Positions 6,584-60,934 are shown, counted from the whole stretch's first letter. The stretch is 63,641 nucleotides of DNA, filler included, from Nitrospinota bacterium (GCA_030620925.1; 10 parts of 10 records of this genome joined end to end with filler, not necessarily neighbours in it); one strand, 5' to 3'. Numbers and translations are program-made. Notes: generated from the sequence alone by a model not told the origin.

Positions 6584-6683
6584 NNNNNNNNNNNNNNNNN
6601 NNNNNNNNNNNNNNNNNNNNNNNNNNNTTAATTAATTAANNNNNNNNNNNNNNNNNNNNNNNNNNNNNNNNNNNNNNNNNNNN
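6584..6683. other. Artificial contig/scaffold linker
   Basis: 44 N + TTAATTAATTAA (stops in all six frames) + 44 N. Confidence 0.99.
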
Positions 6684-8683: not shown

Positions 8684-8686
8684 GGC

Positions 8687-10792
8687 TCAAGATTTCTCCA
8701 ACTGCACCACAAGATTAAGATGGTCATCCATCACCGCCGCGCACCCGGGCCCCAGCACCAGCGTGGACTCCCTCTCCTCTATGATGGCCGGCCCTGAAGC
8801 TTGATGTCCGGCCGACATACGGTACCGGTCGTAAACAGGGCAGTCGGTGTAGCCGCCAAGGCGCTGGAAATAGGCTTTGCGCTTTCCCTTGAAAGCGTTT
8901 TCGGCCGCGGGCTGAGAGACACTCCGCATAGACGAGGCCTCCGTCTCGACTTCATACTCAGGCCCTGAGACCACCACACGCCAGTTGAGGGCCTCTATCC
9001 CGGCGTCGGGGTTCACCCTTGCATAGAGCTTCACGTACTGTTCGTCGAACCCCCGCTTCATATCGCCCACGCTTCGTTTTTCCAGTTTACCGCCCGGGAT
9101 GGGCACCTCTATCTCGTGACGCTGCCCCACGTAGCGCATGTTCGCCGAGCGTTGAAAGTGCATCTCCTCATCGCTGATGCCGGCACTCCGAAGAAATTCC
9201 GCACCTTCCAGCTCCATCTCTTCGAACAGGGCGTTGACCCCTGAGAGGTCTATATCATCCAAAGGTGTCACGTGCGATCTCACCAGATCGTAGGCGAAAG
9301 GGGCCGCCAGGAGACCCAGGGCGGAGGTAACTCCCGCCCCCGGCGGGTAGACAATGGTTCCCACACCCAGCCTCCGGGCCACATCGTAGGCATGCACCGG
9401 CCCCGCCCCACCAAAGGCGATGAGGGTATGCGAAGCAGGATCGCGCCCCTGGCTCATGGCGTGCACCCGGGTCGCGTTGGCCATGTTCTCGTTGACCACC
9501 TGGTGGATGCCCAGGGCCGCCTCCTCCAGCTCCATGCCCAGGGGAACAGCGATGTGAGCCTCGATCGACCTGCGGGCGCACTCGACGTCCAGGTCCATTT
9601 TGCCCCCCAGAAAATAGGCGGGGTCCAGGTATCCCAGGACCAGGTCTGCATCGGTTACCGTGGGCAATTCACCGCCCATACCGTAGCAGGCCGGTCCGGG
9701 GTTCGCTCCCGCACTGTCGGGCCCCACTTTGAGCAGGCCCAGCTTGTCCGCCCGGGCGATGCTCCCGCCGCCCGCTCCGATTTCGATCATCTCCACCACG
9801 GGCAGATTAATCGGCAGACCACTGCCCTTCTTGAATCGGAAAGCGCGGCCCACTTCGAAGTTGGTGGTAGTGAGCGGTTTTCCATCTTCAATGAAGCAGG
9901 CTTTGGCCGTGGTCCCCCCCATATCGAAGGAGAGCAGACGCTTCTCCCCCCTCAGCTTACCGTAATAAGCAGCGGCGATGGCCCCCGCCGCAGGACCCGA
10001 CTCCAGAGCCCTGACCGGAAATCGCTGTGCGGTCTCGCAGGTGGTGATACCGCCGTTGGACAGCATCACCAGCAGGTCTCCTCCGAAGCCCAGCTCCTTC
10101 AGACGGTTTCCGAACCCGGACAGATAGTGGGTCATGGTGGGTTGTGCGTAGGCATTGGCAACGGTGGTGGAAGTGCGCTCAAACTCCCGTATCTCCGGCA
10201 CTACCTCAGACGAGATGGATACTGAGAGGTCGGGGGCCAGTCGCTCTATTATCTCCGCCGCCCGTTGTTCGTTAGACCCATTCATGAAACTGTGCAGGAA
10301 GCAGACCGCCACGGCCTCCACCCCTTCACCGAGGAGTTTTTCCACCGCCTGCACCACCTCTTCTTCGTTCAGAGGGGTGAGGACGGCGCCCTTTTCGTCC
10401 ATCCGCTCGGTCACCTCCATCCTCAACCGGCGGGGGACCAGCGGTTCCGGCATTTCCAGGAACAGGTTGTACATATCGTAGCGGCTCTCGCGCCGTATCT
10501 CCAGCACGTCGCGGAACCCGGCGGTAGTGATAAGCCCGGCCCTGGCTCCCTTGCGTTCTATGATGAGGTTGGTGACCAGCGTGGTGCCGTGAATTATGTT
10601 GAGCACTTCCTCCGGGTCCACACCGGTTTCGGCCAGCTGCTCCCGCACGCCATCCACGGCGGCCATCGACGGGTCCAGTGAAGAGGTGAGGATTTTCCCG
10701 ATAGTTCTCTTGCCGGTGGCTTCGTCCATGAGAATAACGTCGGTGAACGTGCCACCTATGTCCACCCCCAGACGATACCTTCCCTTTTCCAT
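8687..10792 (-). CDS. Hydantoinase A/oxoprolinase family ATP-binding subunit (HyuA-like)
   Basis: GVDIGGTFTD, HGTT, ESGPAAG, FDMGGTT and IGAGGGSIA motifs. Confidence 0.95.
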   Translation of the reverse strand: MEKGRYRLGVDIGGTFTDVILMDEATGKRTIGKILTSSLDPSMAAVDGVREQLAETGVDPEEVLNIIHGTTLVTNLIIERKGARAGLITTAGFRDVLEIRRESRYDMYNLFLEMPEPLVPRRLRMEVTERMDEKGAVLTPLNEEEVVQAVEKLLGEGVEAVAVCFLHSFMNGSNEQRAAEIIERLAPDLSVSISSEVVPEIREFERTSTTVANAYAQPTMTHYLSGFGNRLKELGFGGDLLVMLSNGGITTCETAQRFPVRALESGPAAGAIAAAYYGKLRGEKRLLSFDMGGTTAKACFIEDGKPLTTTNFEVGRAFRFKKGSGLPINLPVVEMIEIGAGGGSIARADKLGLLKVGPDSAGANPGPACYGMGGELPTVTDADLVLGYLDPAYFLGGKMDLDVECARRSIEAHIAVPLGMELEEAALGIHQVVNENMANATRVHAMSQGRDPASHTLIAFGGAGPVHAYDVARRLGVGTIVYPPGAGVTSALGLLAAPFAYDLVRSHVTPLDDIDLSGVNALFEEMELEGAEFLRSAGISDEEMHFQRSANMRYVGQRHEIEVPIPGGKLEKRSVGDMKRGFDEQYVKLYARVNPDAGIEALNWRVVVSGPEYEVETEASSMRSVSQPAAENAFKGKRKAYFQRLGGYTDCPVYDRYRMSAGHQASGPAIIEERESTLVLGPGCAAVMDDHLNLVVQLEKS

Positions 10793-20563: not shown

Positions 20564-20663
20564 NNNNNNNNNNNNNNNNNNNNNNNNNNNNNNNNNNNNN
20601 NNNNNNNTTAATTAATTAANNNNNNNNNNNNNNNNNNNNNNNNNNNNNNNNNNNNNNNNNNNN
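20564..20663. other. Artificial contig/scaffold linker
   Basis: N44-TTAATTAATTAA-N44. Confidence 0.99.
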
Positions 20664-27256: not shown

Positions 27257-27356
27257 NNNNNNNNNNNNNNNNNNNNNNNNNNNNNNNNNNNNNNNNNNNN
27301 TTAATTAATTAANNNNNNNNNNNNNNNNNNNNNNNNNNNNNNNNNNNNNNNNNNNN
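27257..27356. other. Artificial contig/scaffold linker
   Basis: N44-TTAATTAATTAA-N44. Confidence 0.99.
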
Positions 27357-32677: not shown

Positions 32678-32777
32678 NNNNNNNNNNNNNNNNNNNNNNN
32701 NNNNNNNNNNNNNNNNNNNNNTTAATTAATTAANNNNNNNNNNNNNNNNNNNNNNNNNNNNNNNNNNNNNNNNNNNN
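32678..32777. other. Artificial contig/scaffold linker
   Basis: N44-TTAATTAATTAA-N44. Confidence 0.99.
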
Positions 32778-38177: not shown

Positions 38178-38277
38178 NNNNNNNNNNNNNNNNNNNNNNN
38201 NNNNNNNNNNNNNNNNNNNNNTTAATTAATTAANNNNNNNNNNNNNNNNNNNNNNNNNNNNNNNNNNNNNNNNNNNN
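38178..38277. other. Artificial contig/scaffold linker
   Basis: N44-TTAATTAATTAA-N44. Confidence 0.99.
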
Positions 38278-42679: not shown

Positions 42680-42779
42680 NNNNNNNNNNNNNNNNNNNNN
42701 NNNNNNNNNNNNNNNNNNNNNNNTTAATTAATTAANNNNNNNNNNNNNNNNNNNNNNNNNNNNNNNNNNNNNNNNNNNN
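42680..42779. other. Artificial contig/scaffold linker
   Basis: N44-TTAATTAATTAA-N44. Confidence 0.99.
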
Positions 42780-43712: not shown

Positions 43713-44729
43713 TCAGGATGCTTTGGCCGCGTTTACCCGCTCGTTGATCTCATCCAGGGTATATTTACCGGGTTGCTCTCCTTTTTGGACCATCTCCTCC
43801 ACCATGCCGAAAATGGTCTGGTTGATGGGTGTGGGGACGCCATGTTTTTGCCCCAGTCTGACGATCTCGCCATAGAAGCTGTCCAGCTCGGTGCGGCCGC
43901 GCTGCAGGTAGACGTCCTGCCAGGTTGAGGGCCTGAGCAGCATGTGCTCTTCTATGTCCGGTGTCTGTTTGTCCTCCATAGTGCGGAAGGTCTGGAGCAC
44001 TTTTTCCACGGGTGGCAGGCCGGGCATTGTGCCCAGCTCGATTCCGGCGGCGTTGGAGGCTCTATACGCTTCCTCCTGTATATCCGCCAGCAACTCCCTC
44101 AGCTTTTTGTTCCAGGCTATCTCCTGGCCGCAAATATCGGTCATGGCGAAGACGCCGTTACCCAGGTTCATGAACACCTTGCGCCATTTCATTTTCATTA
44201 TTTCTTTTGTAGTGGTGATCTTGAAGTCCGCATCGGCGAGTGCTTTGCCCACGTTTTCCGCCATCTCGTCGATGCCTTCCGGGTAGTTTCCCATGCCCAG
44301 CCCTCTGTCCACGGTATGGATAACCTCACCGGGCGTGATATGCGTGCCGCTGAACAGCACCACGCCCCCATAGACGTTATTGAAATACTCGGAAGCGACC
44401 TCTTCGTTGCGCACGCCGTTCTGGAAGCAGAATACGGGGGTATCGGGGTCTACGTGTCCACGGGCGGCCTCGACCGCTTCCCTGGTCTCCGGCGATTTCA
44501 TGACCATGAAAATTACGTCGTCCGGCTGCATCTCCACGTCGGTTATCCTGGCCGCCGCGGGCACTTTTATGACGTGCTCCCCGGCAAGGCCCTTGAGCCG
44601 AAGCCCGTCCTGCATAATTTTTTCGATGTGTTCGCCCACGTCGATCAATACGACGTCGTACCCCGCCAGATGCAGCTCGGCCCCGATGGGGCCGCCTATT
44701 CCGCCGCAACCGTAGATTATGAATCGCAT
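43713..44729 (-). CDS. Ketopantoate reductase (PanE/ApbA) family oxidoreductase
   Basis: GCGGIG Rossmann fold, MKS, FQNG, W.K...N and PST.QD...GR.TE motifs. Confidence 0.9.
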   Translation of the reverse strand: MRFIIYGCGGIGGPIGAELHLAGYDVVLIDVGEHIEKIMQDGLRLKGLAGEHVIKVPAAARITDVEMQPDDVIFMVMKSPETREAVEAARGHVDPDTPVFCFQNGVRNEEVASEYFNNVYGGVVLFSGTHITPGEVIHTVDRGLGMGNYPEGIDEMAENVGKALADADFKITTTKEIMKMKWRKVFMNLGNGVFAMTDICGQEIAWNKKLRELLADIQEEAYRASNAAGIELGTMPGLPPVEKVLQTFRTMEDKQTPDIEEHMLLRPSTWQDVYLQRGRTELDSFYGEIVRLGQKHGVPTPINQTIFGMVEEMVQKGEQPGKYTLDEINERVNAAKAS

Positions 44730-44792: not shown

Positions 44793-45254
44793 TTATATTT
44801 CTTTCAGCCGCGTTTCCAGGAGTTTTTCAAGGATTTTCCTGTGCTCTTCTTCTTCCTTGATAAGCTGCTGCAACAGACGTAAAACGTCATCATCTTCCTG
44901 TTCCCGCGCGCTGCTTACCAGGTCCATGTATAGAGAGATGGATTCGAGCTCGCTGTGCATGCAGGCTTGAAGCGCTTCCTCTTCGGAGACTCTCGCCCCC
45001 TTTGCGAACGTACCTTCAGATGCAGACAGCGTGAGGTCGATCTCTTCAAACGGGTTTACCTGGGAGATCTGTGATAAGTCCATGACCATGATGATATGCT
45101 TCAGCTCTTCGAGGGCCAGCTTGTTGAGGGTTTTCTTGAGCCGCTTTTCCGATAAGATGTTGGCCGCCCCGCTGAGGCTAGTGAAAGAACCCTTCTCTTT
45201 ATCGAGTGCCAGTTTCAGGATGTCCAGCACATCAAGTTTTTTATTCTCTTCCAT
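44793..45254 (-). CDS. Ferritin-like/rubrerythrin family protein
   Basis: Two ExxH repeats (EELKH, EEEEH) with E-containing helices. Confidence 0.82.
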   Translation of the reverse strand: MEENKKLDVLDILKLALDKEKGSFTSLSGAANILSEKRLKKTLNKLALEELKHIIMVMDLSQISQVNPFEEIDLTLSASEGTFAKGARVSEEEALQACMHSELESISLYMDLVSSAREQEDDDVLRLLQQLIKEEEEHRKILEKLLETRLKEI

Positions 45255-45366
45255 GTTTCATGTTTATCGTTCAGAAGTTCAGAAGTAAGGTTGAAAATTC
45301 CTTGCTGCTGTCCGAGTCTGTTCCCTGCCCGCAGGGTCAAGAGGGTCTGGTGTTAGGTGGAAAAAT

Positions 45367-45395
45367 ATACTAATATGGGTGGAGCTCGAAAGCAA
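45367..45395 (-). promoter_or_regulatory. Putative sigma70 promoter of the ferritin-like gene
   Basis: Minus strand TTGCTT-N17-TAGTAT, about 110 nt upstream of the ATG. Confidence 0.5.
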
Positions 45396-45535
45396 GGTAG
45401 ATTTTCCTTGCGAATTTGCCTAACGCCTTGCCTGTCGTGAAGCGGGAGAAATGGTTAATGGAGAATTAATCGGTTGAACGGACTTACACCTGTAACGTAT
45501 GTAATTGTCAATAAAACCGGAGGGAGGTAAGGGTA

Positions 45536-45859
45536 ATGAGGTTCATCGATTTGGATTCAATGGATAAGAAATCATTAAGAGAAGGCATTCAGAGCCGGAT
45601 CGTTTCCGGCGAAAAGATGATGATGGCCTTCATGGACGTGGAAGCCAATATGAGCGATCCGGGCCACAGCCATCCCCACGAGCAGTGTGGGATAGTCCTT
45701 GAAGGCGAGATCGAGATGACCATAGGAGACGAGGTCAAGCTCTGCAAGAAGGGTGACATCTATTTCATCCCCGGCGACCTGCCCCACGGGGGCAAAACTT
45801 TCGAGAAACCCTGCCTGGTGCTGGACGTCTTCAGCCCGCCCAGGGAGGACTACAAATAA
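45536..45859 (+). CDS. Cupin domain protein (KdgF-like)
   Basis: HSHPHEQ, IPGDLPH and DVFSPPRED motifs. Confidence 0.92.
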   Translation: MRFIDLDSMDKKSLREGIQSRIVSGEKMMMAFMDVEANMSDPGHSHPHEQCGIVLEGEIEMTIGDEVKLCKKGDIYFIPGDLPHGGKTFEKPCLVLDVFSPPREDYK

Positions 45860-45885
45860 ACACCTGCCGGAGAGGGGGACACAAG

Positions 45886-47043
45886 GTGAGTTACGAGACC
45901 TTAGAAGTGGAGCGGGAGGAATCTTCTGCAATCATAAAGTTGAACAGACCCGACAAACGAAACGCGCTGTCCATTCAGCTCAGGAACGAGATGGTGGAAT
46001 GTCTCGGGGAAATTGAAAGTGATGATGAAGTGAAGGCCGTGCTGGTTACCGGAAACGGCCCCGCGTTTTGCGCCGGTTTCGACCTGGAGGAGTTCAAGAA
46101 CCCGGACCCCGACCATATAAAGGCCATCCAGGAAAGTTCCCGGAGGTTTCACGCCGCGGTCACCGGTTTCCCCAAGCCGCTGGTGGCCGCCATCAACGGT
46201 CCGGCCATGGCGGGAGGGCTCGACCTGGCGCTCATGTGCGACATCCGCCTGGCCTCGGAGAAGGCCCTTTTCGGGCATCCCGAGCTGCGGTTCGGCTCCC
46301 ACGTGCTCTACGGGCTTGTCAAGGAAGCCGTGGGGGGAGGCATGGCCAGGGACCTCTGCCTGTCGGGCAGGAACATCGACGCCGCTGAGGCCCACCGCAT
46401 AGGTCTGGTGAGCAAGTTGACGACTCCGGATAAGCTGATGGAAGAATCGAGGGCCATGCTCGGAGAAATCTGCAAGTCACCCCTCAGAATTCTGGTCTCG
46501 ATGAAAGAGAGGGTCAAGAAATACTCTGCGGAAGCCATAGAAGGAGCCACCTCCAGCGAAGGCGATTCCTTTGTGGATANNNNNNNNNNNNNNNNNNNNN
46601 NNNNNNNNNNNNNNNNNNNNNNNTTAATTAATTAANNNNNNNNNNNNNNNNNNNNNNNNNNNNNNNNNNNNNNNNNNNNCATCCGCCTGGCCTCGGAGAA
46701 GGCCCTTTTCGGGCATCCCGAGCTGCGGTTCGGCTCCCACGTGCTCTACGGGCTTGTCAAGGAAGCAGTGGGGGGAGGCATGGCCAGGGACCTCTGCCTG
46801 TCGGGCAGGAACATCGACGCCGCTGAGGCCCACCGCATAGGCCTGGTGAGCAAGTTGACGACTCCGGATAAGCTGATGGAAGAATCGAGGGCCATGCTCG
46901 GAGAAATCTGTAAGTCACCACTCAGAATTCTGGTCTCGATGAAAGAGAGGGTCAAGAAATACTCTGCGGAAGCCATAGAAGGAGCCACCTCCAGCGAAGG
47001 CGATTCCTTTGTGGATATAATCAGAGAAGGGCTGAAAAAATAG
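45886..47043 (+). CDS. Enoyl-CoA hydratase/isomerase; one gene split by the linker, with a duplicated overlap
   Basis: LNRPDKRNA, FCAGFDL, KPLVAAING.AMAGGLD and HPE motifs; 46242-46579 is repeated at 46680-47017 and the stop is at 47043. Confidence 0.9.
46580..46679. other. Artificial linker between overlapping contigs
   Basis: N44-TTAATTAATTAA-N44 flanked by a 338-bp duplicated sequence. Confidence 0.99.
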
Positions 47044-47064
47044 CGGAGTGGATAAGGGAGAGAT

Positions 47065-48255
47065 ATGGAGAAGAATAAGAATGAGATGGAGAGCGTTCCG
47101 CGCTCAAGGGAGGACGATTATTCGGATGAGGCCATAGAAACGCGGCGCAGGTGGATCAAGGAGAAGACCGGCGTTGAGCTCAAGCATATGGCCGCACACT
47201 CGGTGACCGGTAAAGACGTGGAGGGGAACATCGAGAACTTCATCGGCGTGGTGCAGGTGCCCGTAGGGCTTGCCGGGCCGCTTAAGGTAAATGGTGAGCA
47301 CGCTGACGGCGTGTTCTACATTCCCCTGGCCACCACGGAGGGGGCGCTGGTGGCTTCCTACAGCAGGGGGATGAGGGCCATAACCGAATCGGGAGGCGCC
47401 GAGGCCCGCCTGTTCAGCGACCACACCCAGGTGACCCCCATGTTCGTCTTTCGGCGGACGGGTGAAGCGGCAGAGTTCCTGGATTGGGTGGACGCCAACT
47501 ACGATAGGATAAAGGAGGTGGCCGAATCCACCACCCGACACGGCAAGCTGCTGAAAATAGACAAGTACCTCATCGGGAGACGGGCGGCGCTCCGCATGTA
47601 CTACTACACCGGGGACGCCATGGGCCTCAACATGATAACCAACGCCTCGGACAGGGCGGCGAGGTTCATAGAAGAGCAGGTAAAGCCCGAGTCCGTTCTC
47701 TTCCCCAGCTCCATGGGCACGGACAAGAAATCGGCGGCCATCAACATGGTCACCGGGCGGGGAAAGAGGGTTTCTGTGGACGTAGTGCTGCCGGAAGAGG
47801 TGGTGGAAAAAAGGCTTCACACAACGCCCAGGGCAATGGCCCAGGGCTTCTTGACCACCGTGGTAGGGAATGCTCAGGCGGGCACCCTCACCCAGTCCAT
47901 GCACCCCGCCAACGGCCTCACAGCTCTGTTAATGGCAACTGGGCAGGACGTGGCCTACGTCCCCGACTCGGTGGCCACCATAACCACCATGGAGTTAACC
48001 GAAGAGGGCGGCCTTTACGTCAGTCTCTACATGCCCTGCCTCATCCTGGGCACCGTGGGGGGCGGCGTGAGCCTGGGCGGCTTCAGGGAGGCGCTGGAGA
48101 TAATGGACTGCTACGGTGCGGGCAAAGCCAGGAAGTTCGCCGAGATAGCCGCGGCGGCGGTCCTAGGCGGGGAGATTTCGACCCATGCAGCAACAATCAC
48201 CGGAGAGTTCTCCCAGGCTCATAACCGGCTGGGCCGCAACCGGCCCCGGGAATAA
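47065..48255 (+). CDS. Class I (NADPH-type) HMG-CoA reductase family protein, divergent
   Basis: ENFIG, ATTEGALVAS, GDAMGLNM, TDKK, HPAN, GQD.A, GTVGGG and C-terminal AH motifs. Confidence 0.9.
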   Translation: MEKNKNEMESVPRSREDDYSDEAIETRRRWIKEKTGVELKHMAAHSVTGKDVEGNIENFIGVVQVPVGLAGPLKVNGEHADGVFYIPLATTEGALVASYSRGMRAITESGGAEARLFSDHTQVTPMFVFRRTGEAAEFLDWVDANYDRIKEVAESTTRHGKLLKIDKYLIGRRAALRMYYYTGDAMGLNMITNASDRAARFIEEQVKPESVLFPSSMGTDKKSAAINMVTGRGKRVSVDVVLPEEVVEKRLHTTPRAMAQGFLTTVVGNAQAGTLTQSMHPANGLTALLMATGQDVAYVPDSVATITTMELTEEGGLYVSLYMPCLILGTVGGGVSLGGFREALEIMDCYGAGKARKFAEIAAAAVLGGEISTHAATITGEFSQAHNRLGRNRPRE

Positions 48256-48322: not shown

Positions 48323-48697
48323 TCAATCACCTACCGTCTCGTATTCTTCCCACCACCTCACATCCACGGCTTTCAGCTTGGGGACTACTCTGCCTCTGAC
48401 CTTTACCTTCGCGCTGGCTTTGAGGGGTGCTTTACGTATCTGTTCCTCGATGGCCGTGCTTCCGCCCAGGATGTATACGTTACCATCATCGGTGATGAGC
48501 AAGTGCGCTATATGATCGATCGGACATACGCCCGCTTTTCCGTGCATTGTCCCATCGGCTGAGATGCAATATATGAAGCCGGTGAGAGTTGTTTCTCCCG
48601 TGGATATCTCGTCGGCTAGTGCGTTAGTTCCATAAAACATAACAAGCATTGCGGCCACAAGGAGCCCCGGGAGTATCAACCTCCGCGTCTGTTTCAT
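48323..48697 (-). CDS. Small secreted hypothetical protein with Cys/His cluster
   Basis: Signal peptide ending ALA; C..H..C..H..H; beta-rich TLTG...KVKVRG pattern (OB-fold-like); GGAGG RBS. Confidence 0.8.
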   Translation of the reverse strand: MKQTRRLILPGLLVAAMLVMFYGTNALADEISTGETTLTGFIYCISADGTMHGKAGVCPIDHIAHLLITDDGNVYILGGSTAIEEQIRKAPLKASAKVKVRGRVVPKLKAVDVRWWEEYETVGD

Positions 48698-48790
48698 TCC
48701 GGGTCACCTCCTTTCCTTTTAATGGAAAGGATATATCGCCTGGAAGTCTTTTCAACAGCGGGAGGTCATAATTTCATCTTCGCAGTAAGG

Positions 48791-49951
48791 TTAAAATTTT
48801 ACCTCCAACTGGGCCAGGAACTCGTTGTTTTCAACGTCTACGGCGCCGCCCGTGTCCTCATCGATCAAGCTGTATTCGAGTTTGACCTTCACGTTCTTCT
48901 GAATCTCGATGATGCCCGCCAGGGTGAAAACCTGCCAGTCCCAGGTGAGGACTTCGCCGGGGTCGTTGATGAGTCCGTTGTCCAGGTCGTTATACCTTAT
49001 CAGAACGACGATGGACTTGGGCCTGTTCCAGGGGGTCTTGAACTTGTAGGAGGGCTCTATATACCATCCTTTGCGGTCCAGGTCTCCGGTGCCGGTGCTT
49101 ATGTATTCGAACACACAATTTAATTTCTTCTGCCACTTATGAGTCAGGCGGAAGCCATACATGCTCTTCGAGTCTTCCAGTGAGCTGTAGCCGCCGGAGG
49201 CAAGCTCAGTATTGAGCGCCGAGACTTCATCCGGGGTAAGCTTGCTGAAGAAGACCCAGCCCAGAACGTCTATCTTACCGAACTGTCCGAAATCCTGTTT
49301 CCTTCCGGCGCCGAAACCTATCTCCTTGTTCTCGCTCTCGTCACCGACGTTGCGGTCTTCATGCAGGAACTTGGCGCCGCCGTCCTCCATCACCTTTTGC
49401 GTTGTCAGCTCTGTGGCGCTCTTTGCTATTCTCAGGCCGTTGGTGTAGGAGAAGAACCAGTAGGCGAAATCCAGCTTTCCGCCCACGGTGATCCCCAGGT
49501 CGTCATCCCGCCAGAAGGCGGAACCGTTCAGCGGGTAGGTCTCGGTGATCCGGCTTCGCTTGATGAAGCGGTCTTCCAGCCCCACCTTAATGAACGTTTT
49601 TCCGGGAAAACCGGCAAAGGTTACGTGGCCCTCTTCCAGGATGGTCTTGCCGTCCGTCATCGCTATTTCAGCCTTCATGCTGACGTTTTCTTTTAGTTTA
49701 ATCTTGGGGATCAGGTAGAACTGGTCGATCTTGAACTGGCTTTGTGAATCTTTGGCATCTCCCTGGGCGTCCCTGTATTCGATCTCTAGCTCGCCCCCTA
49801 TCTCCCATTTCTCTCCTTTAACGGATAAAAGGCCCCCTTCGTAGGGCTCGCCCACGTCGGCAAACACCTTTGTTGCTGGTGTTAAACCAAACACCAGCAA
49901 AAGAGCCAGCATTGTGATGAACAGTCGTGATGGAATTATTTTCATCCACAT
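48791..49951 (-). CDS. Outer-membrane beta-barrel porin-like protein
   Basis: Signal peptide, amphipathic beta strands, C-terminal FLAQLEVKF (BAM signal ending in Phe). Confidence 0.85.
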   Translation of the reverse strand: MWMKIIPSRLFITMLALLLVFGLTPATKVFADVGEPYEGGLLSVKGEKWEIGGELEIEYRDAQGDAKDSQSQFKIDQFYLIPKIKLKENVSMKAEIAMTDGKTILEEGHVTFAGFPGKTFIKVGLEDRFIKRSRITETYPLNGSAFWRDDDLGITVGGKLDFAYWFFSYTNGLRIAKSATELTTQKVMEDGGAKFLHEDRNVGDESENKEIGFGAGRKQDFGQFGKIDVLGWVFFSKLTPDEVSALNTELASGGYSSLEDSKSMYGFRLTHKWQKKLNCVFEYISTGTGDLDRKGWYIEPSYKFKTPWNRPKSIVVLIRYNDLDNGLINDPGEVLTWDWQVFTLAGIIEIQKNVKVKLEYSLIDEDTGGAVDVENNEFLAQLEVKF

Positions 49952-50202
49952 CTCCTTTCGAACAAATCAGATCAAGCGTTTAATACGAACAGAACTTATC
50001 TCGCCGTACCTAATATATATAGAAAACGGCGTGGTTAAATCCGGGCAGGGCATAATCTTTAAATTAATTACTGTTATATTTATATTCGCTAATTATAAAA
50101 TAGAAGTTAGGTTCGGGCAGGGAAATATTGGTTACCTTTTATAAAGTAAATAAATGCAGTCATTTAGAGTGTAAAGTTAATTGAACGGATATGGTGAATA
50201 TT

Positions 50203-50221
50203 GAGAATGATAATCAATATT
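50203..50221. promoter_or_regulatory. Fur box
   Basis: GAGAATGATAATCAATATT, 16/19 match to GATAATGATAATCATTATC. Confidence 0.8.
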
Positions 50222-50235
50222 AAATTATGTGTCAA
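50207..50235 (-). promoter_or_regulatory. sigma70 promoter of the porin operon, overlapped by the Fur box
   Basis: Minus strand TTGACA-N17-TATCAT. Confidence 0.75.
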
Positions 50236-50383
50236 GTGCTTTCTTCTTTTTGGGGAAATTTTTTTGATGGCTTTGGTACGGCGTGTTATCTATAGGCTGA
50301 TTTAGATGATATTCTAACTAAAAAGAAAACTTATTGTTCCCTTCAAGGATAAAGTGCTAGTTGCGTCCTTTCTTAATGTTTTT

Positions 50384-51064
50384 TCAAGTTTCAACAAGTT
50401 GTTTAGCGATGTTTTCTATTTCCAGCTCCAGGAAGCTCTTGGTCAGCCTGGCTATTTCACGATAAAAGCTTAATTGGGCTTCAGAGATAACCTTGTCGCA
50501 AAATTCAGGGATCCACCTGCTCAGGTGCTCTTCCATGAATTTCTTCTCAATCTTCAGGAAGTATATGGCTTCCTGTTTGTCTTCCTTCCGCCACGCCTCC
50601 CCTTCCTTCAGCAACAGCTCCCGCATGAACTCCAGCTCCACACTGATATGATCGGGGAGACCCTGGTAATCGGATTTATATTCCAGCCCCGTCGATTCGA
50701 TAAACTTCTTGACCTCAACGGTGGACATTCCCCAGAGTAAGCCACACTGGCCGTCATCCCTCTGGTGATGGACCGACTCATGGGGGGAAATATGTTTTCC
50801 GGGACCGATGAACAGCCTGGCGTATTCCACCGCCAGGTCCTCGAGCAGGTCGTCCCCTGCTTTCTGGAGAAAATCGTTCTCAAACTGAACCCCCAGGTCG
50901 GATAACGCCTGTAGAACAGGGGGCTCGGTAATTTGCTTTAAAAGGTCCGATTTCAGCTCCGTTCGGTAAATAACGGCCAGCAGACCGTAGACGTTGCTCC
51001 GCTCTTGAGACGTCTCGGCGAGGTCTTTCAACTCAACGTCGTTTTCCAAGGAACACATTTTCAT
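50384..51064 (-). CDS. TorD/DmsD family molybdoenzyme maturation chaperone
   Basis: EYARLF.GP, SPHES, PDHISVELEFM and F..EHL..W motifs; start chosen after GCGGGGA. Confidence 0.93.
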   Translation of the reverse strand: MKMCSLENDVELKDLAETSQERSNVYGLLAVIYRTELKSDLLKQITEPPVLQALSDLGVQFENDFLQKAGDDLLEDLAVEYARLFIGPGKHISPHESVHHQRDDGQCGLLWGMSTVEVKKFIESTGLEYKSDYQGLPDHISVELEFMRELLLKEGEAWRKEDKQEAIYFLKIEKKFMEEHLSRWIPEFCDKVISEAQLSFYREIARLTKSFLELEIENIAKQLVET

Positions 51065-51114
51065 TAATCCCCGCTTCATCATTAGTTTGAAGCCATCAGG
51101 GTGTGGTTTTAGTG

Positions 51115-51141
51115 GGGGAACCCTCCTTATGAAGGTTCCCC
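51115..51141. repeat. Intercistronic hairpin GGGGAACC...GGTTCCCC
   Basis: Inverted repeat between the catalytic-subunit and chaperone genes; same GGGGGAACC start as the element at 674. Confidence 0.5.
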
Positions 51142-51170
51142 TCATTTAACAACGCATCCGCGTAGGTTGG

Positions 51171-53642
51171 TTATGCTTTGGTGACCTTGACCACAGTGTC
51201 ATACCACCTCTGGCCGCCGGCGATGGGATCGGGGCTGTTAGGGATGACCCAGTTGGGGTGCATCCCGTTGTCCGCCCACCATTTGAGTTGGAGATCCACG
51301 TCTTCCTGTGTCCCCAGAGGCGAGGTCTTACCGGAAGCGTAACGTCCATATTCCCAGTGGCCGCAGTGATTGGAGATGGCGATGACCCCGGGGACTATCT
51401 CCTCGGTAACCCGTGCTTCGGTGGTTATCTCGTTTATGGAGGACTTTACCTTTATCTTCTGGCCGTCCTTTATGCCCAGCTCCTTTGCGGTGGCTGAGTT
51501 GATCCAGGCGGGGTTCTTGTGATAGAGCTCGGTGAGGTACTTGCAGTTCTGGGTGCGGGAATGGGTCTGCGTGTTGAGTTTGTAAGTGGTCAGGATCAAC
51601 TCACCTTTTTTCATCTTTTGATGCTCGGGGATAGGCACCCAGGTGGGTAGAGGTGGGAACCCCTTCTTCTTAAGCTCGTCTGAATAGATGGACAGCTTGC
51701 CCGTATGTCGTCCTATTTTATCCGGCTTGAACCCCAGGTAGGCCACCCCGTTTACCATCTGACCCACGTAGTTCTTGCCCTTCTTGCTGTCGTATTTGTC
51801 TCCTTTGAAGATCAGCCCTGTCTCCGGGTCTACGGTGGTCCCCTGGAGGTCTTTCTCGCTCAATTTTTTGGCGTAGAAGAGATAGTTGGGTTTGGCGTTG
51901 GGGTCATGCCAGGCGCCGTGTTTCTTCATGTACTCGAATCCACCAGCCTCTTTCACACCCTTGGTGTGTTCGCATGCGTCGCGCACGAACTCCTCCGCGG
52001 AGGCAAAGGGGAGCCATTTCTCCATCCCGCCCCCGATTCTCTTGGCCAGTTCGATGCACACGTCCTTGAAGTCCCGTACTTCCCCCAGTGGCTTGACGAT
52101 GGGCTGCCGGATGTAGTATTCGGGGATGCCGTTGTAGGAGACCATATCCTCCCAGTCCCAGCGTTCAAGATAGGTGGTGTCGGGCAGGATGATGTCGGCC
52201 AGGGCCGTCCCCTCACCGTAGAATGGGTCCACAGCTATGTGCATAGGGATGTAGTTTTCGTTGGAGAGGACTTCGATGTTATCCCTGCAGTCCCCGTTGG
52301 AGTACACGGCATTGTAGCAGTAGCTGATGTAGATTTCCGGCCTGCCATACTTGCCCTCTTTGATGAGCTTGAGTACCTGATGGCTGACGTGATGGGTGGG
52401 GAAGGCTATGTTCTCCCCGTCCAGTATTTTAAGTTTCTTCTTGGCTTTGTGAGGTTTGGGGTAGGAGTTCTTCCAGGGGGCTCCCACAGCTTTCAGGCGG
52501 CCCCCCTTATCTCCGATGTAACCGCAGATGGCCTCCAGCATCATGGCCGCCCGCTCGTTCTGGATGCCGTTGTAATGCTGTACCAGGCCTCTATATGACA
52601 ACACCGTTCCCGGTTTGGCCGTTGCGAAGCGGTAAGCTATCTCTTCTATCTTCTGTGAGGGTACTCCGCTTACGCCCTCCGCCCAACTTGAAGTGTACTG
52701 CTTGAGGTGGTCTTTCAGTTTCTGGACGGTGGCGTTGGTCCAGGCCTCAATGAACTTTCGGTCATAGAGCTCGTTCTGCATGATGTAGTTGGCCATGGCC
52801 AGGATGACCGCTCCGTCGGTGCCGGGGCGAACGGGGACCCATTCGTCGGACCTGGCGGCGGTGTTAGAAAACCTTACGTCGAAGGTTACCATGGGCACCC
52901 CCCTGTCATTTCTGGTTTTTATAATCCGTTGCGAAAGGGGGATATGAGAGGTGTGTGTCTCGAATATGTTGGAGCCGAAATTAAGGATGAAGTTGGTGTT
53001 CATGACGTCGGTGATGTCGTAGTGGTGCCCCCAGGTGAGCTCCTGTGCGGTCCACTTGATGCCTTCGCAGATGGAGGTGTGGTTCCCGATGGTAGCAGTC
53101 CCGTATGCGGTCAGGAAGTGGCTCTTGATAATTTTGCTGGAGCTGGCCTTCATGCGCCCGTAATGGAACATGACTTTCTCCGGGTGTCCTTCCTCCCGGA
53201 GCTTCTTCATGGGGGGGACGATCTCCTGGAAAGCCTGCTCCCAGGTGAGGCGCTTCCACTTGCCCTCGCCCCGCTTGCCCACCCGCTTCATGGGGTAGAG
53301 CAACCGGTCGGGGTCGTAAACCTGGTTGACACCCCCTTGCCCCCTGGCGCAGAGGACGCCTCCGGTGCGGGGTAGCTTGGGGTTGCCCTCTATTTTCACC
53401 AGCCTCCCGTCTTCAACGTATCCTATAATCCCGTCCCGGGCCACGCACTGCCAGCAGGCTGAGGGGATGGCCTTGCGCTCTTTCCCGGTGGCGGGGGAGA
53501 TGTCCCTGCCCGCTTCAATGAGGGGGTTCCCTTTCAGTGAGCCTTGGGCCAGAACCTTTTCTGCGCCGAAACCCGAAATAAAAGTGCCTATACCTGCGCC
53601 CAGCTTAAGGAAATTTCGCCTGGTCATTTTCTTCTGCATCAT
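51171..53642 (-). CDS. Tat-exported Mo/W-bisPGD oxidoreductase catalytic subunit (ArrA/TtrA/AnrA-like branch of the DMSO reductase family)
   Basis: TRRNFLK Tat motif; CWQCVARD...C FS0 motif; YDPDRL..P; YGR; NHTSICE; PGTD.A; ADIILPD..YLER. Confidence 0.93.
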   Translation of the reverse strand: MMQKKMTRRNFLKLGAGIGTFISGFGAEKVLAQGSLKGNPLIEAGRDISPATGKERKAIPSACWQCVARDGIIGYVEDGRLVKIEGNPKLPRTGGVLCARGQGGVNQVYDPDRLLYPMKRVGKRGEGKWKRLTWEQAFQEIVPPMKKLREEGHPEKVMFHYGRMKASSSKIIKSHFLTAYGTATIGNHTSICEGIKWTAQELTWGHHYDITDVMNTNFILNFGSNIFETHTSHIPLSQRIIKTRNDRGVPMVTFDVRFSNTAARSDEWVPVRPGTDGAVILAMANYIMQNELYDRKFIEAWTNATVQKLKDHLKQYTSSWAEGVSGVPSQKIEEIAYRFATAKPGTVLSYRGLVQHYNGIQNERAAMMLEAICGYIGDKGGRLKAVGAPWKNSYPKPHKAKKKLKILDGENIAFPTHHVSHQVLKLIKEGKYGRPEIYISYCYNAVYSNGDCRDNIEVLSNENYIPMHIAVDPFYGEGTALADIILPDTTYLERWDWEDMVSYNGIPEYYIRQPIVKPLGEVRDFKDVCIELAKRIGGGMEKWLPFASAEEFVRDACEHTKGVKEAGGFEYMKKHGAWHDPNAKPNYLFYAKKLSEKDLQGTTVDPETGLIFKGDKYDSKKGKNYVGQMVNGVAYLGFKPDKIGRHTGKLSIYSDELKKKGFPPLPTWVPIPEHQKMKKGELILTTYKLNTQTHSRTQNCKYLTELYHKNPAWINSATAKELGIKDGQKIKVKSSINEITTEARVTEEIVPGVIAISNHCGHWEYGRYASGKTSPLGTQEDVDLQLKWWADNGMHPNWVIPNSPDPIAGGQRWYDTVVKVTKA

Positions 53643-53691
53643 TCTCTCCTTCTCAGAACCGGTCAGCATTACATATTGAAGAGTATCTCTG

Positions 53692-54537
53692 CTACTTGTA
53701 TTGAACCGGCGTCCGGCCTTCTCTGATAGCCAGCGTAGCCTTGTTCATTTTGTTGGACTCTACTATCTGGGCATAGAAGTCGTCATCGAGGCCGATGTAA
53801 TAGCACTGGGGATCGGTGTTTAGCTCCGGCCTCAAAACGCGCGTCTGGTTAGAGGCTATGAGCCGTGATAACTTGCTTGTAGGGTCGTTGAGGTTGCCTG
53901 CCAGTCGCGCATGCCCCTGGCAGGTGTTGACGCATGAGGGGATGACGCCCTCTGCAAGCCTGTGGGCGCAGAGGGAGCATTTATCAGCGGCTTTCATCTC
54001 CAGCATGCCACCGGCGGCTTTCACGGGGTCCAGATACCGGACGCCATAGGGGCAATCATCTACGCAGGCACCGCAGCCGATGCATCTGTCCTGGTCTATC
54101 AAGACTATCCCGTCCGGGCGTTGGTAAGTGGCGCGTTTTTTATATTTCTTTTTGGTACCGTCGGGAAAGGTTAATACTGCTTCTTCCTCATCCACAGGGC
54201 AGTTCTCTATGCAAGGTGGGTTTGCGCAGTGGTTGCAGAGCCAGGGGATGAAAGTGCGTTTCACCTGCGGGTAGGTGCCCGCTACCTTTTCGCCCACACC
54301 GGCGCGAAACACACCCAGCCGAAGGTCGAACTCAGTCTTACATGCCACCGCGCAGGCGTTGCATCCTATGCAACGCCTCAGGTCCACAAGGAAGCCCCAT
54401 CTTACGGGGCCTGTAGACCTCCGCACCGCCTCCGCCGTTCCGGATAAGGCAGCCAAGCCCAGGCCCGTCGCCAGCCCGGCTCCTAGGGCAAGTTTCATAA
54501 ATTCGCTTCGGCTCACCTCTTCATAATCTTCTCCCAT
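53692..54537 (-). CDS. 4Fe-4S dicluster electron-transfer subunit (DmsB/ArrB-like)
   Basis: CIGCNACAVAC, CNHCANPPC...CP, CIGCGACVDDCP and KCSLC...PSCVNTC motifs; N-terminal signal-like peptide. Confidence 0.95.
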   Translation of the reverse strand: MGEDYEEVSRSEFMKLALGAGLATGLGLAALSGTAEAVRRSTGPVRWGFLVDLRRCIGCNACAVACKTEFDLRLGVFRAGVGEKVAGTYPQVKRTFIPWLCNHCANPPCIENCPVDEEEAVLTFPDGTKKKYKKRATYQRPDGIVLIDQDRCIGCGACVDDCPYGVRYLDPVKAAGGMLEMKAADKCSLCAHRLAEGVIPSCVNTCQGHARLAGNLNDPTSKLSRLIASNQTRVLRPELNTDPQCYYIGLDDDFYAQIVESNKMNKATLAIREGRTPVQYK

Positions 54538-55076
54538 CAGATTTATCCCTCCCTCTCTTGGAATTATTATGTGTGGCCACGTCACTTAAACATAATTCAG
54601 GTGCATAAACAAAACGCGATGTGCACGTATAATTGCATTTATATATGCAATAATCGTTCTAAATCAAGGGTTACATTAACTTTTGTTAACACTTGGAAGC
54701 TGATATTTTTTGTTTCGCCTCTGTTCTCCAAGGCACTTAAGAAGGGATTTGCCCGTATGCCCTTTAAATAAGGGGTAGATGGGGTGGTGTGAGGTTCTAT
54801 TTTAAATATCTGTGGATGGATTTACCTGTTATTTTTTATGATTCAAATTATTTTTCTTCGAGTTCATGCCTTGAAAAAAACCATTTTTATATCACCAAAC
54901 GGTAACATAGGTTACTCTTTAGTAACCGGTGAGCCTTAAAACTCGGTATAATGCCGGATGTCAAAGGTTATGTTTCTTTACCTTCTCCCAGAGGTTTTTC
55001 CTGCTGATCGCTCGCGGTCGATTACTCTAACTATAAAAGTGGGACAATGATTGGAAGCAGATCATTAGCGGGGTCC

Positions 55077-55176
55077 NNNNNNNNNNNNNNNNNNNNNNNN
55101 NNNNNNNNNNNNNNNNNNNNTTAATTAATTAANNNNNNNNNNNNNNNNNNNNNNNNNNNNNNNNNNNNNNNNNNNN
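55077..55176. other. Artificial contig/scaffold linker
   Basis: N44-TTAATTAATTAA-N44. Confidence 0.99.
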
Positions 55177-55736
55177 CCCTTAAAGATAATATTGAACCCC
55201 GGCTCGTCATGCAGGACGGACTGATAGCGGGCATGTCGGTGATTGGGGAACGTTTCAAGAACAACGATATATACCTCCCGGACGTCCTGGTGGCGGCCAG
55301 GGCCATGAACGCCGGACTGGCCATCGTGGAACCGTTACTGGCCGAAGCCGGCGAGGAACCGGTAGCCAGAGCGGTCTCAGGCACGGTGAAGGGCGACCTG
55401 CACGACATCGGGAAAAACATAGTGGTCATGATGCTGCGCGGAGCGGGCTTCCAGGTCGCCGATCTGGGGGTGGACGTGGCGCCCGAAAAATTCCTTGAAG
55501 CCGCCAGCGAGACCGGCGCCCAACTGGTCACCTTGTCCTCCCTGCTCACCCTCTCCATGCCCACAATGGAGGCGGCTCTGACGGCCATCAGAGACAGCGA
55601 CTTGCGGGATAAAGTCAAGGTGATGGTGGGCGGCGCGCCGGTTACTCAGCTATACGCCGACGGCATAGGGGCCGACGGCTACGCCTCCGACGCCGCAACC
55701 GCCGTGGAAAAAGCCAAAGAGCTCCTGGGCTTGTGA
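55177..55736 (+). CDS. Methyltransferase corrinoid protein (5' truncated)
   Basis: Cap domain GL.AGM..IG.RF; B12 motif GDLHDIGKN; DLGVDV; VMVGGAPVT. Confidence 0.95.
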
Positions 55737-55817
55737 AGAAATTGAACTGTGGCAGGCGCGGGGATGTTTTTTTAAGACCGGGATGCCTGTCCCCAAAACG
55801 AAAAGGGGAAACTAATC

Positions 55818-56879
55818 ATGGTTGAGATGACTTCACGGGAGAGGGTGCTCAAGACCTTCGAGCGCAAGATACCGGACAGGGTCCCCCTCTTCACCCAGGG
55901 CCTCGACCCCATTTTTATCAAGGAATTGGGAGGTGGCAACCCCTACCGGGCACTGGAAGCGCTTGAGGTGGACATCTTTCCCATCAGGAGCATGGTATGG
56001 TGTGAGGGTCGGCCCCAATTCGCTTCATTGAAAGAGGAACTCCCTCCTGAAATGGTGCTGTCCGGCGGCTTCTTCGGGGGTTGGGAGGGTGTTGACGAGT
56101 TCGGGCGCATCTGGAAACAGGGCTCATACATGGGCGGTATGGTGAAAACTGAGGAGGACATCGAAAAATACGTGCCTCCTTTGAAACTGGAGGAACGCAC
56201 GGACCCCGAACAGGCAAAGGCGATAATGGAAAAATTCAGTCACAAGGCTTTCACCCTCTCCTCCCACACCGGCCCCTTCGGCATGGCCATGGAGAGCATG
56301 GGCCAGGTGGAGTTCTGCCTGGCTTTCATGGACAACAGGGAACTGATACGCAAGCACCTGCGCGCCCGCACCGATTGGTTCATAGGCATCGCTCAATACG
56401 CCCAGGAGCTGGGCGTGGACCTCGTTCTCATGGGCGACGACGTGGCCTACAAGGAACGCACCTTCATTTCGGCGGAAGATTTCAACGAGATGGTCATACC
56501 CGAATACGGGCGCATCTGCCAGGCCGTGGACCTGCCGGTGATTTGGCATTCCGACGGCTACACGACCCCCCTCATGGAGGGAGCCGTGAAAGCCGGATTC
56601 GCCGCTGTGCATGCCCTGGAGCCCGCCGCCGGGGTGGACCTGGGGGAGATCAAGAAAAACTACGGGGAAAAGCTGGTGCTTATGGGAAACGTTGATGTGG
56701 GTGACGTCCTATGCAACGATGATCTTGAGGCTGTGAGGAAGGACATTGACCGCTGCATGGCCCAGGCCAAGGAGGGAGGGGGTTATATGCTTTCGGACTG
56801 CAACTCCATTCATGCTGCATGTAAAACCGCCGCCCTTAAGGAAATGTTTCGCTACGGGAAAGAGGTTGGAAAATATTGA
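55818..56879 (+). CDS. Uroporphyrinogen decarboxylase family protein (MtaA/CmuA-like methyltransferase)
   Basis: MTSRERV...PDRVP, DEFG, GDD.A, HSDG, GNVD and GGGY motifs; adjacent to the corrinoid protein. Confidence 0.88.
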   Translation: MVEMTSRERVLKTFERKIPDRVPLFTQGLDPIFIKELGGGNPYRALEALEVDIFPIRSMVWCEGRPQFASLKEELPPEMVLSGGFFGGWEGVDEFGRIWKQGSYMGGMVKTEEDIEKYVPPLKLEERTDPEQAKAIMEKFSHKAFTLSSHTGPFGMAMESMGQVEFCLAFMDNRELIRKHLRARTDWFIGIAQYAQELGVDLVLMGDDVAYKERTFISAEDFNEMVIPEYGRICQAVDLPVIWHSDGYTTPLMEGAVKAGFAAVHALEPAAGVDLGEIKKNYGEKLVLMGNVDVGDVLCNDDLEAVRKDIDRCMAQAKEGGGYMLSDCNSIHAACKTAALKEMFRYGKEVGKY

Positions 56880-60834: not shown

Positions 60835-60934
60835 NNNNNNNNNNNNNNNNNNNNNNNNNNNNNNNNNNNNNNNNNNNNTTAATTAATTAANNNNNNNNNN
60901 NNNNNNNNNNNNNNNNNNNNNNNNNNNNNNNNNN
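60835..60934. other. Artificial contig/scaffold linker
   Basis: N44-TTAATTAATTAA-N44. Confidence 0.99.

Follow-up and report, generated by a model that had tools for sequence, protein, structure and literature searches.

The cupin–crotonase–reductase operon

The window analysed here, meaning the whole 63.6 kb stretch taken from the draft genome of a Nitrospinota bacterium (GCA_030620925.1), consists of 10 contigs joined by 9 identical artificial linkers. Between positions 45536 and 48255 it carries three genes in a row, which encode a small cupin, a crotonase, and a homologue of the class I reductases (HMGRs) of HMG-CoA, short for 3-hydroxy-3-methylglutaryl-coenzyme A. The last of these is the main subject of this work, since it combines the fold and catalytic residues of HMGR with the loss of residues that bind the HMG moiety, and resembles in this respect the fatty acyl-CoA reductase FcrA. 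The features of the locus are as follows.

45536-45859 (+): cupin gene, 107 residues, on the left contig (42780-46579)
45886-46579 (+): first 231 codons of the crotonase gene, with a GTG start, running into the end of the left contig
46580-46679: linker at the seventh junction (N44-TTAATTAATTAA-N44), interrupting the crotonase gene
46680-47043 (+): C-terminal part of the crotonase gene, resuming in the same frame on the right contig (46680-55076)
47065-48255 (+): class I HMGR homologue of the FcrA-like, non-canonical kind, 396 residues
48272-48309 (-): terminator-like hairpin of 15 pairs, 8 of them G-C, scored on the minus strand
6584-6683, 20564-20663, 27257-27356, 32678-32777, 38178-38277, 42680-42779, 46580-46679, 55077-55176 and 60835-60934: the nine artificial linkers, all non-biological

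The three genes are co-directional and separated by gaps of 26 bp (cupin to crotonase) and 21 bp (crotonase to reductase), and a purine-rich, Shine-Dalgarno-like stretch precedes each of the three starts. A preliminary description of this DNA had reported this spacing, as well as the continuity of the operon through overlapping contig ends, and both observations have been confirmed. The end of the left contig (46243-46579) and the start of the right contig (46680-47016) share 337 bp, of which all but 4 are identical (98.8%). The right-contig part of the crotonase gene thus repeats the left contig, and only its final 8 codons and the stop are new. Overlapping ends are found at one of the nine junctions, the one inside the crotonase gene, and at none of the other eight. 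The gene order cupin–crotonase–reductase is therefore well supported. Gene neighbourhood across the other eight junctions is meaningless.

Catalytic core, substrate pocket and relatives of the reductase

The reductase matches the Pfam family PF00368 (HMG-CoA_red) over residues 23-391, the full catalytic domain, with an E-value of 4.4e-113 and 378 bits. The match begins at residue 23, and the protein has no N-terminal Lad or acyl carrier protein (ACP) domain. The comparison of a structural model with class I HMGR, proposed in the preliminary description, places the protein in this fold: the AlphaFold2 model has a mean predicted local distance difference test score of 85 and a TM-score of 0.86–0.88 to the Methanothermococcus thermolithotrophicus enzyme (6hr7) and the human enzyme (1dqa).

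Residue equivalences rest on pairwise HMMER alignments with human HMGR (1dq8/2q1l) and 6hr7, with the human numbering anchored on E559 (TTEG), D653 (DAMG), and D767 (GQD). The class I catalytic and cofactor motifs described earlier can all be read in the reductase, namely TTEG (E92), DAMG (184-187), DKK (220-222), GQD (D295), and the terminal SQAH (H386). The catalytic tetrad is therefore complete, with E92, K221, D295, and H386 at the positions of human E559, K691, D767, and H866. Residues S98 (S565), R101 (R568), R158 (R627), H280 (H752), and N283 (N755) are also kept, as is the whole D220-K221-K222 stretch, which corresponds to human D690-K692. In the human enzyme, R627 binds the 2'-phosphate of NADPH.

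The HMG-binding side of the pocket is different. In canonical HMGR, K735 forms a salt bridge to the HMG carboxylate, and R590 and S684 are among the polar contacts (PMC9500038). Human R590 (MTRxP) lies opposite V123 (HTQVTP) in both pairwise alignments, K735 lies opposite T264 (LTT) in two pairwise and three family alignments, and L862 is replaced by F382. The loss of HMG-binding residues claimed in the preliminary description thus holds for R590 and K735, while the case of S684 is ambiguous: in the cis-loop, which reads PSSMG, S684 pairs with S215 in the gapped human alignment or with P214 in the gapless family alignments. The signature of the window reductase at positions 590/684/735/862 is V/P/T/F. 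The protein scores 354.6 bits against the NCBIfam equivalog TIGR00533, below the cut-off of 441.8.

The preliminary description presented this type of reductase as undescribed. In this respect it was mistaken, since FcrA, a class I HMGR homologue with the same kind of replacements, had already been published (Grossi et al. 2025, ISME J; PMC11948995). The main text of that paper describes FcrA from Natronomonas pharaonis and ‘Ca. Promineifilum breve’ as an NADPH-dependent enzyme that forms fatty alcohol from fatty acyl-CoA. Purified Pb-FcrA uses NADPH and acyl-CoA of C14 and longer, and shows neither reduction of HMG-CoA nor inhibition by simvastatin (PMC11948995). FcrA keeps Glu559, Lys691, Asp767, and His866. 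In N. pharaonis, Glu (Glu360) takes the place of Ser684; every FcrA has a bulky residue instead of Leu862 (a Trp in the N. pharaonis enzyme), and residues that are generally small stand in for the lysine of the HMG salt bridge (PMC11948995). This lysine is printed there as ‘Lys795’, which by its described role is probably a misprint for K735, given as Lys735 in PMC9500038. The text further reports that FcrA, together with its putative members, makes up a large monophyletic clade in bacteria without the mevalonate pathway, and that an N-terminal Lad or ACP domain is present in some FcrA only (PMC11948995). The literature search found no further papers on FcrA. As for other reports of HMGR genes outside their usual setting, a review (PMC13001223) offers only lone HmgR genes in some Streptomyces, and a preprint on cofactor engineering (10.64898/2026.04.01.713023) was set aside as not relevant.

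Close relatives of the window reductase are rare. A search of 5.8 billion protein clusters returned three of them (P0002-P0004, 80–85% identical), so that the clade comprises 4 sequence clusters including that of the window itself. The next relatives, P0005-P0021, are ~50–52% identical, with one labelled ‘Euryarchaeota archaeon’, and are followed by a large bacterial set at 45–50%. Among the 120 best matches, the R590 column is occupied by Ile in 62, Val in 46, and Arg in 6, and the K735 column by Lys in 2. Two of the HMGR-like relatives, P0055 and P0098, are fused to a 4HBT_2 thioesterase-like domain (PF13279).

A profile scan of species-representative genomes gave 80 loci (67 bacterial and 13 archaeal), the best being 49% identical, and no member of the query clade is found among these 80. 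All 13 archaeal loci read Arg/Ser/Lys/Leu at positions 590/684/735/862, and directly upstream in four of these lie genes for HMG-CoA synthase, thiolase, and a DUF35-type OB-fold/zinc-ribbon protein (Pfam OB_ChsH2_C, zf-ChsH2). These archaeal loci with mevalonate-type neighbours serve as a positive control of the approach. R590 and K735 never occur together in the 67 bacterial loci (46 keep neither, 20 the Arg only, and 1 the Lys only), while E559, K691, N755, and D767 are kept in all 67, and the L862 position is Phe, Trp, or Tyr in 63. Because the loci were chosen by likeness to the query profile, these counts are no proof that canonical bacterial class I enzymes are absent. In a library clustered at 50% identity, 3,535 relatives were found at E up to 0.001. 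The catalytic tetrad is present in 141 of the 150 nearest representatives, an aromatic residue at L862 in 127, and the canonical R..K..L combination in 12; at the S684 position of the same representatives, Glu occurs 71 times, Asp 15 times, and Pro 2 times.

The best fit to the described FcrA is provided by proteins with the signature R/E/x/W, here called Trp-type, which occur at 17 loci, mostly in Gammaproteobacteria. An N-terminal extension of ~139 residues is present in the majority. A gene for a wax ester synthase/diacylglycerol acyltransferase (WS/DGAT) lies directly upstream of Trp-type genes at three loci from Woeseiaceae and Flavobacteriaceae-labelled metagenome-assembled genomes (MAGs), L039:1826-3247, L040:6590-8002, and L060:4571-5983, which agrees with the published role of FcrA.

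Two maximum-likelihood trees have been built, the first with 56 rows (38 of the 80 loci and 18 database proteins) and the second with 89 rows, of which 61 come from the 150 representatives. In both unrooted trees, the canonical clade (11 and 18 rows, respectively) forms one side of a branch with a support of 100, and the query is outside it. Also outside the canonical clade in both trees are the query clade, with 4 rows, and the clade sister to it, with 6 rows, each supported at 100. These two clades join at 91 in the larger tree, and the pair joins loosely (86) with three representatives bearing the signatures APSF, SPNF, and VCAF. The query stands on the same side of the 100 split, unrooted as it is, as the Trp-type proteins with WS/DGAT neighbours. 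The window reductase is thus part of a large non-canonical branch of class I HMGR homologues whose characterised members are FcrA, and the trees, which are unrooted and hold neither characterised FcrA sequences nor a class II outgroup, are compatible with a placement inside the published FcrA clade. The suggestion of the preliminary description that this is a repurposed reductase is well borne out by the loss of R590 and K735, the score below the TIGR00533 cut-off, and the position outside the canonical clade, against archaeal controls that are canonical in 13 of 13 cases.

Crotonase, cupin and gene neighbourhoods

The crotonase matches the Pfam family ECH_1 with an E-value of 5.6e-48 and 164 bits. 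Its best NCBIfam model is PRK06190 (183 bits, under the cut-off of 253), and no equivalog cut-off is reached. The best structural matches are 5zai, a 3-hydroxypropionyl-CoA dehydratase (140 bits), and 3pzk, EchA8 of M. tuberculosis (130 bits). The window crotonase aligns with both from residue 1. It preserves the oxyanion-hole region as well as E133, the second catalytic Glu, but has D113 where these enzymes have the first catalytic Glu, and is ~20 residues shorter at the C-terminus. Enoyl-CoA hydratases carry a Glu/Glu catalytic pair, and a similar Asp/Glu arrangement is known from dienoyl-CoA isomerase. D113 is present in all 120 of the best crotonase homologues and E133 in 119 of them. Since the Asp/Glu pair is conserved, the protein represents a conserved and presumably active crotonase subfamily. 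The window has a second crotonase gene on another contig (31357-32172, +), whose best match is a DpgD-type enoyl-CoA hydratase (318 bits against a cut-off of 400).

The cupin is a small, single-domain protein (Cupin_2, E 3.6e-14) with the motifs GHSHPHEQ...G and PGDLPHG, and its close homologues are 68–94% identical. Its closest solved structure is 4e2g, with 101 bits over 104 residues and the same His/His/Glu...His motif region. As 4e2g has been deposited as a ‘Cupin 2 conserved barrel domain protein’ with no function name, it gives no functional lead for the cupin. The next structural matches, to the BacB isomerase and KdgF, are weak (50 bits or less). A dimethylsulfoniopropionate-lyase-type cupin was considered and rejected, the match to 5cu1 being weak (E 1.4e-4).

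Database clusters offer a view of the trio in relatives. In one Joint Genome Institute source, the matches to the reductase (P0004, 82%), the crotonase (P0132, 72%), and the cupin (P0242, 83%) each come from a contig of 10,598 bp, and judging by this equal size, homologues of all three genes appear to share one contig. Likewise, a crotonase (P0136, 75%) and a cupin (P0361) each come from a contig of 1,376 bp. These apparently shared contigs point to conservation of the trio.

Gene neighbourhoods around the HMGR-like loci have been scanned for 19 of the 22 largest neighbour clusters and for 43 of the 55 neighbouring open reading frames (ORFs) of seven loci. Three long clusters of minus-strand ORFs and twelve neighbouring ORFs were left out, the latter being short, overlapping, annotated, or omitted, with one of ~900 residues (L001:13406-16105). 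In the scanned loci, ketosynthase genes were counted upstream in 17, ACP genes upstream in 7, and genes for a flavin-dependent (FAD) amine-oxidase-like protein downstream in 20, together with a PlsC-epimerase fusion in 14 loci, a short-chain dehydrogenase/reductase (SDR) in 5, an ABC1 kinase in 7, and histidine kinases in 7. In Acidobacteriota and allies, two ketosynthase genes and an ACP gene lie upstream of the HMGR-like gene (for example L007:4431-10751, L006:9771-11459, and L025:2635-4347), and the FAD amine-oxidase (phytoene-desaturase-like), a PlsC-acyltransferase/epimerase fusion, the SDR, and the ABC1 kinase lie downstream. This arrangement looks like an uncharacterised lipid cluster. 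The HMGR-like proteins of Nitrospirota and Planctomycetia are either fused to PilZ domains or followed by seven-transmembrane histidine kinases and response regulators (P0032, P0046, P0088, P0096, P0120; L013:9145-12849; L001:9200-11275), which suggests cyclic di-GMP or two-component control. The literature search returned nothing relevant on HMGR with PilZ, or on HMGR with Acidobacteria and ACP. At one of these loci, from a Planctomycetia MAG, a 1770-residue RHS-repeat protein with a TcdB middle/N-terminal region is encoded upstream (L001:457-5766) and is probably unrelated to the reductase.

Around the operon in the window, a ferritin/rubrerythrin-like gene lies upstream in divergent orientation (44793-45254), and a PanE/ApbA-family gene, 2-dehydropantoate-reductase-like, lies two genes upstream on the opposite strand (43713-44729, -). 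No sigma-70-like promoter was found on the plus strand upstream of the operon, and the minus strand of this region has three sigma-70-like sites against 1.7 expected. For the region upstream of the cupin gene, the idea of a riboswitch or another known RNA element was rejected, as positions 45200-45600 have no Rfam match at E up to 1; the only Rfam matches in the whole window are 4 tRNAs. Downstream, the hairpin sits between the reductase gene and a convergent gene (48323-48697). With an A-run 5' of its stem on the plus strand, it may terminate transcription in both directions. The convergent block (48323-54585, -) encodes a secreted protein of 124 residues, a protein of 386 residues that matches no family, a TorD-like chaperone, a PhsA/Ttr-like molybdopterin oxidoreductase (831 residues), and a TtrB/DsrO-like 4Fe-4S subunit.

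Elsewhere, the window carries bacterial housekeeping genes (tig, clpXP, infC, rplT, and a lipopolysaccharide heptosyltransferase gene) and a hydantoinase A/B pair (6995-10792, -), which is caprolactamase- or acetophenone-carboxylase-like and far below the equivalog cut-offs. A gene for a corrinoid protein (MtbC/MtgC-like) lies beside one for a URO-D/MtaA-like methyltransferase (55179-56876, +), a pair that suggests methyl-group metabolism in this bacterium.

Proposed activity, alternatives and known systems

By analogy with FcrA, the window protein is most likely an acyl-CoA reductase. Taking the three genes together, we consider it moderately probable that an FcrA-like reductase forms an alcohol from an acyl-CoA which the crotonase, and perhaps the cupin, of the same operon have shaped. 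In this scheme, the reductase would use the HMGR machinery of Glu, Lys, Asp, and His and two NADPH to take an acyl-CoA thioester that has no HMG carboxylate to the aldehyde level and on to the primary alcohol, with release of CoA. The crotonase would hydrate or isomerise an enoyl-CoA and pass the product to the reductase, and the cupin, a metal-type single-domain protein, might also help to prepare the acyl-CoA. The route would then end not in mevalonate but in a hydroxy- or an unsaturated alcohol such as a 1,3-diol. Like the activity itself, the direction of the reaction, the cofactor used, a coupling to the crotonase, and the nature and chain length of the substrate are inferred.

An acyl-CoA processed by the crotonase is a plausible substrate, in view of the operon structure and the apparent co-occurrence of the genes on one other contig. 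A 3-hydroxyacyl-CoA, which would give a 1,3-diol, fits with the retained D690 and K692 and with the crotonase, but the argument from these two residues is not discriminating because the Trp-type FcrA-like proteins keep both as well. The more specific proposal of an undescribed short pathway, in which the Asp/Glu crotonase, perhaps with isomerisation by the cupin, would provide a 3-hydroxy- or otherwise modified acyl-CoA for four-electron reduction in the V/P/T/F pocket to a diol or unsaturated alcohol, is put forward as a tentative one. The main text of PMC11948995 has no mention of crotonase, enoyl-CoA hydratase, or cupin, and the literature search found no paper linking cupin, crotonase, and HMGR-like genes.

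Several observations weigh against a dedicated partnership of the three proteins and a simple equation with FcrA. The preliminary description proposed an analysis of the gene neighbourhoods of homologues: within 8 kb of their HMGR-like gene, none of the 80 loci has a crotonase homologue and one has a cupin homologue, and therefore the link of these genes to the reductase is not a general one. Close relatives of the crotonase form 17 clusters (at least 63% identity) against 3 close reductase clusters besides that of the window, and the long contigs of the crotonase relatives (21,894, 53,743, and 167,402 bp) do not recur among the reductase matches, which indicates that the crotonase often occurs without a reductase of this kind. 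The shared 10,598-bp contig is recognised from its size, without gene order, and the two contigs of the window may stem from two close strains, given that 4 of the 337 overlapping bases differ. As for the pocket, the Ser684-to-Glu replacement of FcrA is absent from the window reductase, which has Pro or Ser there, and R590, kept by the Trp-type FcrA-like proteins, is lost. The window reductase could therefore differ from FcrA beyond chain length.

The strongest alternative is that the protein is an ordinary FcrA, whose crotonase and cupin neighbours belong to a beta-oxidation-type function or are unrelated to it. We regard this as possible, though on the doubtful side. It can draw on the small residue at K735 and the aromatic residue at L862, on the lipid contexts of related bacterial loci (WS/DGAT at L039, L040, and L060, and ketosynthase, ACP, and PlsC-like genes in Acidobacteriota), and on the statement in the FcrA paper that fcrA is often found without WS/DGAT (PMC11948995). 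On the other hand, no WS/DGAT, PlsC-like, AGPS, or FadD gene occurs on the two contigs of the operon or elsewhere in the scanned ORFs of the window, the protein has no Lad or ACP domain and no Glu at S684, and the tight three-gene operon is apparently conserved in a relative with 72–83% identical proteins. Moreover, FcrA has an elongated pocket that takes a chain of C14 or longer, and 12 of the 59 modelled pockets of putative FcrA fit only smaller molecules (PMC11948995).

A catabolic use of the enzyme, in which an alcohol or diol would be oxidised with CoA and NADP+ to an acyl-CoA that the crotonase dehydrates or isomerises for beta-oxidation, similar to the degradative class II HMGR of Pseudomonas mevalonii, appears improbable. 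HMGR can catalyse its reaction in both directions, TIGR00532 represents a degradative HMGR family, and crotonases are typical of catabolic routes, with a dehydratase (5zai) as the best structural match here. Yet the window reductase matches TIGR00532 weakly (63.8 bits, with a cut-off of 259.95) and retains R158, an NADPH-type contact; its characterised relative, FcrA, uses NADPH in the reductive direction, and the operon has no transporter for an alcohol substrate and no regulator.

A role as the HMGR of a mevalonate pathway is very unlikely, and a genuine but divergent HMG-CoA reductase of a bacterial mevalonate pathway can be given little credence. The similarity to PF00368 and TIGR00533 is strong, and the catalytic residues and DKK loop are all present, but K735, R590, and L862 are replaced, the score is under the TIGR00533 cut-off, and the protein lies outside the canonical clade at a support of 100. 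FcrA with similar replacements cannot reduce HMG-CoA (PMC11948995). As already stated in the preliminary description for HMG-CoA synthase and mevalonate kinase, neither these nor genes of the methylerythritol phosphate (MEP) pathway were found in the window, with 55 of its 67 ORFs scanned against NCBIfam and 16 ORFs against Pfam; this stands in contrast with the four canonical archaeal loci that have such genes upstream, but it is weak evidence because the window is made of 10 unlinked contigs of a draft genome. Finally, that the operon is an assembly artefact, with two contigs adjacent only in a concatenated window in which 8 of 9 junctions have no overlap and this one has 4 mismatches, is hardly credible in view of the 337-bp overlap at 98.8% identity, in frame within one gene, and of the independent 10,598-bp contig that appears to carry homologues of all three genes.

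Genes of this type are routinely annotated as ‘hydroxymethylglutaryl-CoA reductase (NADPH)’ and can thus be mistaken for a mevalonate pathway in bacteria that probably have none. The window offers a concrete example of a non-wax-ester ‘other pathway’, in the form of a subclade that is rare and deep-branching, differs in its pocket signature, and is accompanied by a crotonase and a cupin. Should the substrate be a short or hydroxylated acyl-CoA, this would widen the known chemistry of the HMGR fold and give the HMGR superfamily a further substrate class, in addition to HMG-CoA and long-chain fatty acyl-CoA, and a one-enzyme route from acyl-CoA to diol would be of biotechnological interest. If the enzyme is an ordinary long-chain FcrA, the finding amounts to a correction of annotation.

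Compared with known systems, the window reductase is 43% and 35% identical to the canonical class I HMGRs of human (1dq8/1dqa) and M. thermolithotrophicus (6hr7), respectively. It has in common with them the TTEG, DAMG, DKK, and GQD motifs and the C-terminal His, and it differs in V123 for R590, T264 for K735, F382 for L862, and PSSMG for SGNxC, and in having no HMG-CoA synthase or thiolase gene upstream. The HMGR-like proteins of Acidobacteriota, Nitrospirota, and Planctomycetota, annotated as ‘hydroxymethylglutaryl-CoA reductase’ in MAGs, are 45–50% identical to it. Like the window reductase, they have Ile or Val at R590, a replaced K735, and Phe at L862, but they form a separate clade in which D690 and K692 are often Glu and Arg (SEKRA).

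FcrA is the closest described system. Fold and the four catalytic residues are the same in both, both fall outside the canonical clade and have no mevalonate genes nearby, and the FcrA marks of a small residue at K735 (T264) and a bulky aromatic residue at L862 (F382) are both present. The window reductase differs in having no Lad or ACP domain, such as some FcrA carry, and no WS/DGAT, PlsC-like, or AGPS neighbour, and its gene shares an operon with crotonase and cupin genes. The reductase type has been described since 2025; the novelty here lies in the rare subclade, its distinct pocket signature, and its crotonase–cupin operon.

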